A DNA stretch of 64,000 nucleotides. It comes from a virus. The stretch is taken from the IMG/VR virus record IMGVR_UViG_3300002092_000035, positions 1 through 64,000 of that record; one strand, given 5' to 3'. The notes below the pieces were generated by a model. The model was not told the DNA's origin, searched no databases, and saw only the letters and a program-made list of their open reading frames with translations. Both the position numbers and the translations under genes were made by a program. Below, in pieces: positions 5,646 to 52,623 of the stretch; the first letter of the stretch is position 1; each line of letters begins with the position of its first letter.

Positions 5646-6623
5646 TGCGAGATCCTTCTTCCTACAAAGTCGTTCAAGCGGTTAGATGACGCTTCCGGCC
5701 GGATAGCCCTCTGCACCTTGGGGTCGGTAAATTGGGGAGCATTCCGCAATCCAGAAGATATGCGCCGTGTTTGTCGCATTCTACAGCGTAGTCTATGTAA
5801 CATCCTAGATTATCAAGATTTCTTGAGCATTCAGAGCAAGTTGAGCAATGATGAGATTCAACCGTTGGGTATCGGAATCACTAATCTCGCTTACTGGCAT
5901 GCGAAGCGTAACTATAAGTATGGTGAGCAAGATGCTCTACAAGATGTAAAGACATGGATGGAGCATCAGGCATTCTATCTCACCGAAGCGACAGTAGAAC
6001 TCGCAAAAGAACGCGGCGCCTGTTTGCATTCGGATAAAACAAGATACGGTCAAGGAATCTTCCCTTGGGAACTCAGAGCAACCGGAGTTAATGAACTTGC
6101 AGACTTTGCTCCTGAATTAGATTGGGAAACGCTACGTACTGACATGAAGCAGTACGGTGTTCGCAACGCGACATTGATGGCAGTTGCACCAGTTGAATCT
6201 TCATCTGTAGTCATCAACTCTACGAACGGTATTGAGATGCCGATGTCTCTGATCTCTGTGAAGGAATCAAAGGCTGGCTCATTCATTCAAGTTGTTCCGG
6301 AATATCACAAGCTGAAGAATAAGTATCAGATGATGTGGGAGCAGATAGATTGTGCAGGATATCTCAAGACTGCTGCTGTTCTCGCAGTATATGTTGATCA
6401 GTCAATATCTACAAATACTTTCTACAATCCAGCCCACTTCCCTGGTCGTAAGGTACCTACTACACTCATCGCTAAGAACTTGATGCAGGCTCATTTGTGG
6501 GGAATCAAGACTTTCTACTACTCACTAATCAACAAGCAAGGTAGTAAAGAGGAAGAAGAAGCACCGCTAGAGATAATTGACTTTGATGATGAAGATGAGT
6601 CCTGCGAATCTTGCAAGCTGTAG
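5544..6623 (+). CDS. nrdA: split intein C-half fused to ribonucleotide reductase alpha C-part
   Basis: HN/CEILLP, IALCTLGS, APVESSS, DQSISTN, KTFYY, C-terminal CESCKL. Confidence 0.95.
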   Translation: MIKIRKITVEPTDVYDISVPETECFFADNILVHNCEILLPTKSFKRLDDASGRIALCTLGSVNWGAFRNPEDMRRVCRILQRSLCNILDYQDFLSIQSKLSNDEIQPLGIGITNLAYWHAKRNYKYGEQDALQDVKTWMEHQAFYLTEATVELAKERGACLHSDKTRYGQGIFPWELRATGVNELADFAPELDWETLRTDMKQYGVRNATLMAVAPVESSSVVINSTNGIEMPMSLISVKESKAGSFIQVVPEYHKLKNKYQMMWEQIDCAGYLKTAAVLAVYVDQSISTNTFYNPAHFPGRKVPTTLIAKNLMQAHLWGIKTFYYSLINKQGSKEEEEAPLEIIDFDDEDESCESCKL

Positions 6624-17696: not shown

Positions 17697-17771
17697 GCGT
17701 TTGAGGCTAAATGGCATAGCAAGGGTCTCTAAAGCCCGAGATAGCAGGTTCAAATCCTGTCAGACGCGCCA
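17697..17771 (+). tRNA. amber suppressor tRNA (anticodon CTA)
   Basis: GCGTTTG/CAGACGC-GCCA, loop CT-CTA-AA, T loop GGTTCAAATCC. Confidence 0.85.
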
Positions 17772-22153: not shown

Positions 22154-22240
22154 ATGCTAAATTCTGTAATTAGGGGTTGACAATGGTTACCCGTTTTGTT
22201 ATAGTGAATCATAGAGATTGAAACAAAGAAAGTTTGCATC

Positions 22241-22465
22241 ATGAACCGCTTTCAGATGATCAGCAACAACGGCAGCGTGTTTAAGGAAGCCACTGTCACC
22301 CTGTCTACCGTAGAAATGCCCCGATGGCCTGGAATCGACCTGGGATACACCTACGAATCCTGCTTGTTTAGTTCCGAAGAGTCCGAGGTTCTAGCCCGGT
22401 ACCATGATCGTAGCGAAGCGATTGCCGGACATGTTGAACTGGAAAAAAAGTTCAACTTGCAATAA
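22241..22465 (+). CDS. hypothetical early protein
   Basis: ORF after early promoter. Confidence 0.55.
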   Translation: MNRFQMISNNGSVFKEATVTLSTVEMPRWPGIDLGYTYESCLFSSEESEVLARYHDRSEAIAGHVELEKKFNLQ

Positions 22466-22473
22466 GTTTTCGG

Positions 22474-22502
22474 TTGACATTAGCATAAAGCAGTGCTAAG
22501 AT
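22474..22502 (+). promoter_or_regulatory. sigma70 promoter for leader/tRNA array
   Basis: TTGACA-N17-TAAGAT. Confidence 0.65.
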
Positions 22503-22576
22503 ACAAATAAGCTGAAGAAAGCGAAAAAACAGTAGTTAATTCAGCATAAAAATTTACAGGACTAAATACACTTACT

Positions 22577-22714
22577 ATGATGAACACTACTTGTCAGATA
22601 TCGCAGCAACATGGCCTCTGGGTAAGAGAAACCTCTATGGCATCAGTATTGCCAGCGTATCCAACAAGTATTCGCGGAGACTTTAATCAAACAAAAGGTC
22701 CGGGGATTAAGTAA
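22577..22714 (+). CDS. putative 45-aa leader peptide of tRNA operon
   Basis: MMNTTCQISQQHGLWVRETSMASVLPAYPTSIRGDFNQTKGPGIK; all 20 aa; directly before a terminator. Confidence 0.55.
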   Translation: MMNTTCQISQQHGLWVRETSMASVLPAYPTSIRGDFNQTKGPGIK

Positions 22715-22741
22715 ACAAGTCATCATAACTTAGTTTATTTA

Positions 22742-22780
22742 GGCCCTGGGAATCGCGAGACTCTCAGGGTTTTCCAGTTT
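22742..22780 (+). terminator. terminator/attenuator hairpin
   Basis: GGCCCTGGGA...TCTCAGGGTT followed by TT CCAG TTT. Confidence 0.6.
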
Positions 22781-23068
22781 AAAGTGCAAGTCGGAACGAG
22801 GCTGCAAAGCACTATAAAAAATGAACGGGCGGTGTTAGGGATGAAATCTGCGGAGGTAACGCAGAGAGTAAAAACTTTCAGTGAGGGACAATGTGATCCC
22901 TCGCAAGCGGGAAAGTCCGAAATGCTGGACAACATAATCTCGCTTGTCAACAAAAGGCTAACCTATATCATTTGACAACATCGTTGATCTAAACGACAGC
23001 CCCTAGACTTTTGAACTTTCTGGAAAAAGCACATCATCGGTGTTTTCAAATGCTATATACTTCTTTAT

Positions 23069-23142
23069 TGAGGGATCGTCTAAAGGTAAGACATTCGTTT
23101 TTGGTGCGAATTATCTGGGTTCGAGTCCTAGTCCCTCAGCCA
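23069..23142 (+). tRNA. tRNA-Gln(TTG)
   Basis: Cloverleaf, CCA. Confidence 0.9.
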
Positions 23143-23665: not shown

Positions 23666-23743
23666 GCACCCGTAGCTCAGATGGATTAGAGCATACCGCT
23701 ACGAACGGTAAGGTCGGGAGTTCAAGTCTCTCCGGGTGTGCCA
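23666..23743 (+). tRNA. tRNA-Arg(ACG)
   Basis: Cloverleaf, CCA. Confidence 0.92.
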
Positions 23744-23762
23744 ATTTAACAAAGGAAACACA

Positions 23763-24143
23763 ATGAGTTATCATCTATTTCTAGACGATGTGCGTATGCC
23801 AGGTGATGCATCTTGGGTCAGGTTACCTTCAGCCCGATATGACATCGTCCGCAACTATGATGAGTTTGTAGAGTTTATTCAAGAACGCGGTGTTCCTGAA
23901 TTCGTGTCATTTGACCATGATCTTGCTGATCAACACTATGTTGCTATGCTACTAGAGTCACAAGGTAAACACGCTGATTACGGTCCTGAGAAGTCAGGAT
24001 ATGATTGTGCTAAGTGGCTTGTGAATTTCTGTGACGATCAAGGCGTGAAATTTCCTGGATATGCAGTGCATTCTATGAATCCTGCAGGAGCAGAAAACAT
24101 TATCAATTATATAGAGAATGCTAAAAAGCATCTGGGTCTATAG
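23763..24143 (+). CDS. cyclic-phosphate-processing receiver-domain protein
   Basis: LFLDDVR, SFDHDL, SGYDCAKW, VHSMNPAG; the end overlaps tRNA-Val. Confidence 0.75.
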   Translation: MSYHLFLDDVRMPGDASWVRLPSARYDIVRNYDEFVEFIQERGVPEFVSFDHDLADQHYVAMLLESQGKHADYGPEKSGYDCAKWLVNFCDDQGVKFPGYAVHSMNPAGAENIINYIENAKKHLGL

Positions 24144-28487: not shown

Positions 28488-28782
28488 GCGCCGATAGCTC
28501 AATTGGTTAGAGCCGACCGCTTACTGTAATATGTGGGCCTCTATGATGGAAACATTATAGATGTAAGTGATCAAATTCGGGGAACCCTTTCAAATGGCGA
28601 TCCCGAGCCAAGCCCTGCAAAGGGAAGGTGTAGAGACTAGACGGTCACCATCTAAGTCGTAAGATATGATGAAGGTATAGTCCAGACCACAAATCGGTCG
28701 TCTTTTATATGACCGAGTAACGAAAGCTATAGTGGTAAGCATAACGGTCTGGTTGGGGGTTCGAGTCCCTCTCGGCGCACCA
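28488..28782 (+). tRNA. tRNA(CAT), Ile2-like, interrupted by group I intron
   Basis: GCGCCGA/TCGGCGC-ACCA; spliced arm GACCG-CT^CATAA-CGGTC. Confidence 0.85.
28522..28739 (+). mobile_element. group I intron (IC3-like, about 218 nt, no ORF)
   Basis: P AAATTCGGGGAA, Q ATCCCGAGCC, R GTAGAGACTAGACG, S AAGGTATAGTCC, terminal G. Confidence 0.85.
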
Positions 28783-52372: not shown

Positions 52373-52623
52373 AAAAGGTTGACAACCATAACCCTATTTG
52401 CTATATTAATAATAGAGCAAGAATTGTCTTAGCTCATTTTTCGAGGACTTACTATGCACACTTGGTGGCTTTTGATTCGTAATGATTTTGGCTCTCCTAT
52501 GCGTATTACTGTGCAAGCAGATAACGCATACCTAGCTTATCAACAAGCTAGGGCTATCTACGGTGATCGGTTGATCACTGAAAATGCAAATAAGTGCTAA
52601 TTGGCTCAAATTAAGGAAACTGG

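Follow-up and report, generated by a model that had tools for sequence, protein, structure and literature searches.

A putative attenuator with a leader ORF using all 20 amino acids at the head of giant-phage tRNA arrays

Why phages carry large sets of tRNA genes, and how they express them, is an old open question. According to current ideas, such sets may provide codon compensation, replace host tRNAs that have been degraded, or help the phage to evade defences that cleave tRNAs (PMC10264068, PMC11555353). The locus described here raises the question of expression in a specific form: could a short leader ORF that uses every amino acid control transcription into a tRNA array that serves every amino acid? 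The stretch of DNA analysed (hereafter, the window) covers the initial 64 kb of an IMG/VR virus record of 91 kb, for which CheckV estimates a completeness of 25%, indicating a giant phage as the source. Its tRNA array (23069-43610, + strand) comprises 31 tRNAs found by ARAGORN, representing all 20 isotypes and interspersed with homing-endonuclease and other genes. The leader ORF lies upstream on the same strand (22577-22714) and has an ATG start and 45 codons followed by TAA. The encoded peptide, MMNTTCQISQQHGLWVRETSMASVLPAYPTSIRGDFNQTKGPGIK (45 aa), contains 20/20 amino acids, specified by 36 distinct codons. The original prediction, which described a promoter, this ORF, a terminator-like hairpin, a TCCGGGG stretch able to pair with it and an all-20 tRNA array as a putative attenuator, was confirmed for each of these elements at the positions given. 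Its statement that the array comes directly after the terminator failed, as about 295 nt, including a structured RNA and a promoter-like site, separate the terminator from the first tRNA, which starts at 23069. The interpretation as an attenuator is now supported by comparison with relatives, not by experiment.

By itself, a single ORF with all 20 amino acids is unremarkable. Among random 45-mers, 1.9-2.6% have such content, as do 15 of 801 45-residue segments taken from long ORFs and 2 of the 123 ORFs of 40-50 aa in the window. All-20 content being common in random 45-codon ORFs had been named as a finding that would refute the prediction; the level is about 2%, and because random 45-mers match at this rate a lone instance means little. 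Further all-20 ORFs of 35-60 aa are present in the window at 52454, 62381 and 63751; they are unrelated to the leader and not near tRNAs. At least 36 distinct codons are found in 0.2% of 45-codon gene segments. The match between leader codons and phage tRNAs is not distinctive, since 27 of the 45 codons have a Watson-Crick cognate among the phage tRNAs, compared with 55% in genes. It is conservation across relatives that lifts the leader above chance.

A blastn search with positions 22200-23100 returned no match among deposited phage genomes. An invariant 25-mer from the non-coding block downstream retrieved 29 metagenome contigs and several viral contigs, and the small ORF was present in all of these that reach far enough upstream. 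A profile built from the peptides then matched 80 database proteins, all unnamed or annotated as hypothetical, among them a distant subfamily whose alignment led to another 60 viral loci, the longest contig being 525 kb. At least 85 related loci from freshwater giant phages share the ORF, the switch and their position. Among the 60 further loci, a same-strand tRNA array starts 260-1537 nt 3' of the ORF in 55, and in the other five the contig stops no more than about 600 nt from the ORF; 58 have no tRNAs in the 6 kb upstream. A separate automated measurement of spacings was noisy and gave rough ranges only. With the exception of the five truncated contigs, the leader ORF always heads a same-strand tRNA array.

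The surroundings of the leader were less informative. Pfam and PHROG contain no family for the leader peptide or its neighbours, the 366-aa gene upstream has no relatives among the viral contigs, and loci retrieved through the cREC_REC gene of the array told us nothing about the leader. The 74-aa gene that adjoins the leader upstream (22241-22465) has 80% identical relatives in L032-L034, where they sit after the tRNA array and not before it. Homology to these loci stops at about position 22474 of the window. The presence of this gene on the other side of the array in close relatives indicates that the array borders have been rearranged.

Comparison of the relatives provides clear evidence for a conserved reading frame. 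Frame 1 is free of stop codons in all 65 distinct DNA versions, and frames 2 and 3 are open in none. As had been predicted, the length of the ORF is conserved (43-48 codons). Insertions and deletions inside the ORF are all multiples of three (3, 6 or 9 nt), whereas past the stop codon they are of arbitrary length. Divergence at codon positions 1, 2 and 3 is 0.27, 0.27 and 0.34, respectively, with a pN/pS of about 0.6. The frame is strictly kept and residue identity only weakly constrained. Translation of the ORF remains an inference.

The all-20 content itself is also retained, as anticipated. All 20 amino acids occur in 108 of 129 distinct peptides (43-50 residues), the figure for random 45-mers being about 2%. 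Rare residues are mostly present as a single copy, and this copy relocates: across the alignment it occupies 9 different columns for Asp, 8 for Glu, 12 for internal Met, 9 for Val and 6 for Lys, and Phe has shifted place between subfamilies. Just one peptide lacks an internal Met. We searched for statistical support by permuting residues column by column between lineage representatives. Nine of 10 representatives were all-20 compared with 3.9 +/- 1.3 under the null (none of 3000 shuffles reached 9; P < 1/3000), and with 14 representatives sharing less than 62% identity, 9 were all-20 compared with 3.3 +/- 1.4 (P = 0.0002). These permutations leave some shared ancestry unremoved. A sister-pair test for loss of amino acids was not significant (6 observed versus 8.5 +/- 1.5 expected, P = 0.09); the 34 sister pairs included 10 complete relocations and 9 presence/absence differences. 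The invariant residues are largely of one- or two-codon types (Trp, His, Tyr, Phe and nearly Cys), which, as far as can be inferred, fits a rule that at least one of each is kept. Codon diversity, which had also been expected to persist, does so only as a weak trend. Given their peptides, the leaders use a mean of 35.5 distinct codons, compared with 32.8 expected from phage usage and 33.8 from uniform usage; 94% of versions exceed the usage-based expectation, and the versions are not independent.

Composition is not the only property under constraint. In 24 members of the distant subfamily the motif YPTSIRG is invariant while its codons vary synonymously, and this conservation at the amino-acid level implies some constraint on the peptide itself, which a pure composition sensor does not explain.

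Some leaders deviate from the all-20 pattern. A degenerate leader in L132 (6001-6210) has 17 residue types, lacking Cys, Asp and Val, together with a C.A mismatch in the antiterminator, and is possibly a decaying copy. A clade with Cys-less leaders (L046, L073 and proteins P0039, P0042-P0044, P0046 and P0048) carries GGGTTAACC in place of the U-tract after the hairpin and has a diverged downstream RNA. For L073 the contig includes 9 kb of array, too little to compare its tRNA roster with the leader. Arrays downstream of leaders without Asp (G005, G006) nonetheless include tRNA-Asp, so that matching between leader composition and tRNA roster is unsupported.

The RNA around the end of the ORF can adopt two alternative structures (all + strand). 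One is the terminator-like hairpin at 22744-22773, in which arm B (CCCTGGGA, 22744-22751) is followed by a GCGA loop region, arm C (TCTCAGGG, 22762-22769) and UUUU. The other is an antiterminator with two tiers. Its outer stem is formed by region A (TCCGGGG, 22699-22705, codons 41-43), which is complementary to CCCTGGG, and its inner tier is an A/U-rich hairpin with the stop codon inside (22708-22741), identified from covariation and folding. The predicted covariation was found for both structures. Pairing is kept in 97.2% of cells of the terminator helix, and compensatory change occurs at three pairs, with a C-G/U-A split of 13:51 at one and a C-G/A-U split of 29:28 at another; the loop is variable (GCGA, GCAA, GAAA or longer). 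The U-tract, flagged as short in the original prediction, indeed has 4 U in the window; most relatives, including the distant subfamily, have 5-6 U, and it is absent from the L046/L073 clade.

For the antiterminator, each of 67 distinct versions was folded without the 3' arm, mimicking nascent RNA, and arm B paired with region A in 67/67, the outer A:B stem stacking on the inner hairpin. The antiterminator is slightly more stable than the terminator (mean energies of -20.4 and -17.0 kcal/mol over the 67 versions) and is much more stable than with a shuffled sequence upstream in all 19 representatives (z from -1.8 to -6.9). Minimum-energy folds of the full-length versions gave the terminator in 34 and the antiterminator in 33, a model prediction that is as expected of a switch. 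Compensatory changes support the outer stem. A G->A change in arm B is matched by C->U in region A in four of five sequences, from three lineages, where an arm CCCUGAG (instead of CCCUGGG) accompanies a region A CUCGGGG (instead of CCCGGGG) in L111/L122, L123 and L125, a substitution that turns a Pro codon into a Ser codon. In L130 and L042, A-U replaces G-U in the same pairing, and the sole exception to A:B compensation is L132. The inner hairpin covaries as well (pair 52-87: G-C in 35, A-U in 19), and the two-tier architecture persists even in the most divergent member, L069, whose sequence differs.

The geometry of these elements suggests how a ribosome could choose between them. The distance from the end of region A to the stop codon (22712) is 6 nt; the stop codon itself lies inside the inner stem, and the terminator stem begins 29 nt after the stop codon, so that a terminating ribosome would not block the terminator. 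A ribosome at the end of the ORF would cover region A and open the inner hairpin, freeing arm B. This argument is one of geometry only and rests on the known bacterial ribosome footprint and on the distance dependence described in PMC4824070; the effect on termination, and with it the dependence of read-through on ribosome position, is inferred. A protector hairpin equivalent to trp 1:2 could not be convincingly identified; RNAalifold proposes a helix inside the ORF, with mixed support. In the absence of a protector hairpin, and since the antiterminator should form without translation, read-through is predicted to be the default.

Upstream of the ORF, promoter P1 (22474-22502, + strand) consists of TTGACA (22474-22479), a 17-nt spacer and a TG-extended TAAGAT (22497-22502), with 10/12 matches. 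Its position about 100 nt upstream of the ATG is conserved across the family, as TTGACA-N17-TATACT or TATAAG, and the version in L076 (TTGACA-17-TATACT) reaches 11/12. Between promoter and ORF we read from the sequence a possible 5'-UTR hairpin (GCTGAA ... TTCAGC, 22511-22545, + strand); relatives have a hairpin at this site with other sequences (GGTGTAAA...TTTACAC), for which covariation was not formally counted. The alignment also revealed a nearly invariant CAGGACTAAATA before the start codon (22557-22568, + strand), containing a distant Shine-Dalgarno-like AGGA and/or a TAAATA promoter-like motif. The AGGA starts at -17, compared with -13 to -10 in other genes of the phage (4-6 nt further). 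It is possible that CAGGACTAAATA is a promoter-like motif rather than a Shine-Dalgarno sequence. The motif RMTAAATA occurs at 27 sites in the window, versus 16.4 +/- 4.1 expected, often 5-30 nt upstream of start codons (e.g. 324, 21028, 22561, 25047, 26922 and 44060), and may be a phage-specific promoter element that recalls the T4 late TATAAATA.

Additional promoters downstream of the terminator limit what the switch can control. Most relatives have a second promoter separating the switch from the tRNAs, and the window has a weaker candidate there. In the window, a promoter-like site (TTGTCA-N16-TATCAT, 22944-22971, + strand; 10/12 matches) precedes the first tRNA, and in relatives its -35 part is conserved while the -10 part is variable but TA-rich. 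In the distant subfamily, TTGACA-17-TACAAT (11/12) lies about 20 nt after the terminator (L076:6218-6246), and the order is terminator, promoter, second small ORF, RNA core and tRNAs. That second conserved ORF (L076 ~6284-6390; about 35 codons, xTxEQ..LIExKLER...) is not all-20 and ends where the structured RNA begins. Given these promoters, the array does not depend on read-through alone, and we infer that the switch can govern part of its transcription at most. That the tRNA array is the output of the switch is also inferred.

In about 75 of 83 loci (e.g. L076:6400-6460), a conserved structured RNA separates the switch from the first tRNA. In the window, where it is single-copy, it spans 22781-22981 (+ strand) and comprises a hairpin AGTC/GGCT with the loop GGAACGA (22789-22803), then GAACGGGCGG (22823-22832), then covarying hairpins. 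The stem of the first hairpin covaries freely (AGUC/GGCU, UAGA/UCUA, AGGA/UCCU, AGAG/CUCU) around a fixed loop AACGAG(G), and is followed by an A-rich stretch and an invariant AACGGGCGG. A pseudoknot would result from a second pairing in the distant subfamily (for example, CUAC...GUAG or AUAC...GUAU). In the subfamily of the window it starts within 10-55 nt after the terminator; no promoter-like site was found between the two, and the structured RNA therefore seems to need terminator read-through.

We could not assign this RNA to a known family. The 603-nt intergenic region has no Rfam family even at E <= 10. A tmRNA was rejected, as neither ARAGORN nor Rfam detected one. RNase P RNA was considered on account of GGGAAAGTCCG ... 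ACAAAAGGCTAA and rejected: the supposed P4 helix (AGUCC/GGCU) is refuted by GUCC covarying with a local GGAC (GUCC/GGAC, GUCU/AGAC, UCCU/AGGA), GGCU itself being invariant. The element is also too short for RNase P RNA, and Rfam gave no match. A preQ1-I riboswitch was considered in view of the H-type pseudoknot and its A-rich tail, and was dropped for lack of Rfam support.

The array and its vicinity contain several other genes. Among the tRNAs are a cREC_REC gene (23736-24143; PF20274, E = 4e-20) with relatives in 30 other viral contigs, a group I intron match (28513-28698; Rfam RF00028, 61.4 bits), and homing-endonuclease genes of the HNH (25085 and 29108) and DUF559 (40176) types. cREC_REC is a cyclic-phosphate-processing receiver domain of a family linked to RNA repair systems. 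A tRNA with a CTA anticodon, amber-reading and called Pyl by ARAGORN, lies outside the array at 17697-17771, 5 kb upstream of the leader; the close relatives L133 and L134 also carry one tRNA upstream.

Our preferred reading is that the locus is a ribosome-mediated attenuator with a leader that samples every amino acid, allowing more transcription to enter the tRNA region when decoding falters. The evidence tips the balance towards this reading without settling it, as it is inferred from sequence alone, with no RNA or ribosome data. Part of the reading is that selection keeps every amino acid, over many codons, in the leader ORF. Transcription would begin at P1. Region A and the stop-codon hairpin would then pair with the 5' arm of the terminator to form the two-tier antiterminator, which, being transcribed first and slightly more stable, would favour default read-through into the structured RNA and the array. 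A ribosome that keeps pace would reach the end of the ORF and mask region A, so that the terminator forms and transcription stops. If instead the ribosome were delayed at an earlier codon, because any one charged tRNA is short, the antiterminator would stay intact and more phage tRNAs would be made.

A bolder version regards the leader as a gauge of decoding for every amino acid, in which any shortage of charged tRNA, whether from starvation, host shut-off or tRNA-cleaving defences, leads to read-through into a complete tRNA set. In this version the YPTSIRG motif might, as a speculation, hold the ribosome at the stop codon and so secure termination when decoding is healthy. We see as much reason to doubt this version as to accept it, and the link to host anticodon nucleases is speculation only. 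The position of some residues argues against it. The all-20 set is complete without the last five codons in 100 of the 129 peptides, and most versions need residues 6-9 codons before the stop, mostly the sole Glu. This Glu is often 5-7 codons before the stop, and a ribosome stalled there should already mask region A, contrary to what a pan-sensor requires. In the leader of the window, Lys is encoded at positions 40 and 45 and nowhere else.

We weighed three rival explanations against the attenuator. The closest to it accepts a real translation-dependent switch and assigns it an output other than the tRNA array, which would be driven by its own promoter; the switch could then set the level of the structured RNA, yield a small RNA in the form of the terminated leader, or protect the downstream promoter against transcription arriving from upstream. 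In its favour are the strong promoter directly after the terminator in the distant subfamily, the promoter-like site at 22944-22971 in the window, and the structured RNA that is always located between leader and tRNAs. However, the ORF is seen only at the heads of tRNA arrays, the all-20 leader matches an array of all 20 isotypes, and no other function is suggested for the structured RNA, so that we regard this alternative as unlikely. It also seems unlikely that the locus is an ordinary small protein gene whose all-20 content is a by-product. Such a gene would have its own promoter and terminator, as is observed, gene callers list these ORFs as hypothetical proteins, and the invariance of Trp, His and, across synonymous codons in 24 distant members, YPTSIRG would be natural for it. 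In contrast, a pN/pS of about 0.6 and the lack of a Pfam or PHROG match speak against it, retention of all 20 residues with relocation is unexpected for a 45-residue protein, and a simple gene end would have no use for covariation between the end of the ORF and a terminator arm.

The remaining possibility, that the open frame is incidental and the whole stretch is a non-coding structured leader RNA, gains some support from the structured and conserved RNA around it and from the badly spaced Shine-Dalgarno-like motif. We consider it very unlikely, as frame 1 is open in 65/65 versions and the other frames in none, indels in the ORF are multiples of three, and peptide motifs survive synonymous changes.

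If the attenuator reading is true, the supply of phage tRNAs would be regulated by direct feedback from the ribosome, and textbook attenuation would be extended from one amino acid to overall decoding capacity. It would also illustrate how selection can act on the amino-acid composition of a peptide in place of its sequence. In the bolder version, the locus would be the first attenuator reporting global translation capacity and the first described for tRNA genes. Such a small natural sensor of how well a cell translates might also be of use as a reporter part.

In the full-text literature that we searched, we found no account of attenuation before tRNA arrays, nor of an all-20 leader. The nearest published case there is the trn operon of Anabaena sp. 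PCC 7120, a long tRNA array (> 20 genes) induced under translational stress (PMC8421152) and repressed by TrcR (PMC10272220). Both systems involve an accessory tRNA array, and in Anabaena its expression rises when translation is impaired. The Anabaena operon, however, has promoter repeats and a repressor and no leader, whereas the phage has a candidate leader with a terminator and an antiterminator; the words attenuation and leader are absent from the Anabaena trn operon paper. With T-box elements the phage leader would share the choice between terminator and antiterminator in a leader RNA that reports on tRNA charging, as proposed here. A T-box senses a single specific uncharged tRNA by direct binding, with no translation involved, and its targets are aminoacyl-tRNA synthetase or amino-acid genes; no T-box or other Rfam match was found at the leader region. 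TnaC and SecM are regulatory nascent peptides, and the likeness to them goes no further than a Trp and a short motif, both conserved, upstream of the presumed ribosome position, with no sequence similarity shown.

Leader-peptide attenuators of enterobacteria include trpL, hisL, leuL, pheL and the multivalent thrL and ilvGMEDA leaders, and in leaders of the trpL/hisL type the position of the ribosome on the ORF decides which structure forms. The phage locus shares with this type a short ORF in the 5' leader (its translation here being inferred), an intrinsic terminator, and a mutually exclusive antiterminator that uses the 5' arm of the terminator and overlaps the end of the ORF. Unlike the trp type, it has no clear 1:2 protector hairpin, and the regulatory codon runs that are the hallmark of classical attenuators are missing from its leader. 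In leaders of the trpL/hisL type such runs specify between one and three amino acids, and the genes controlled are biosynthetic; in the phage leader each of the 20 amino acids appears about once, and the genes that follow are viral tRNA genes.
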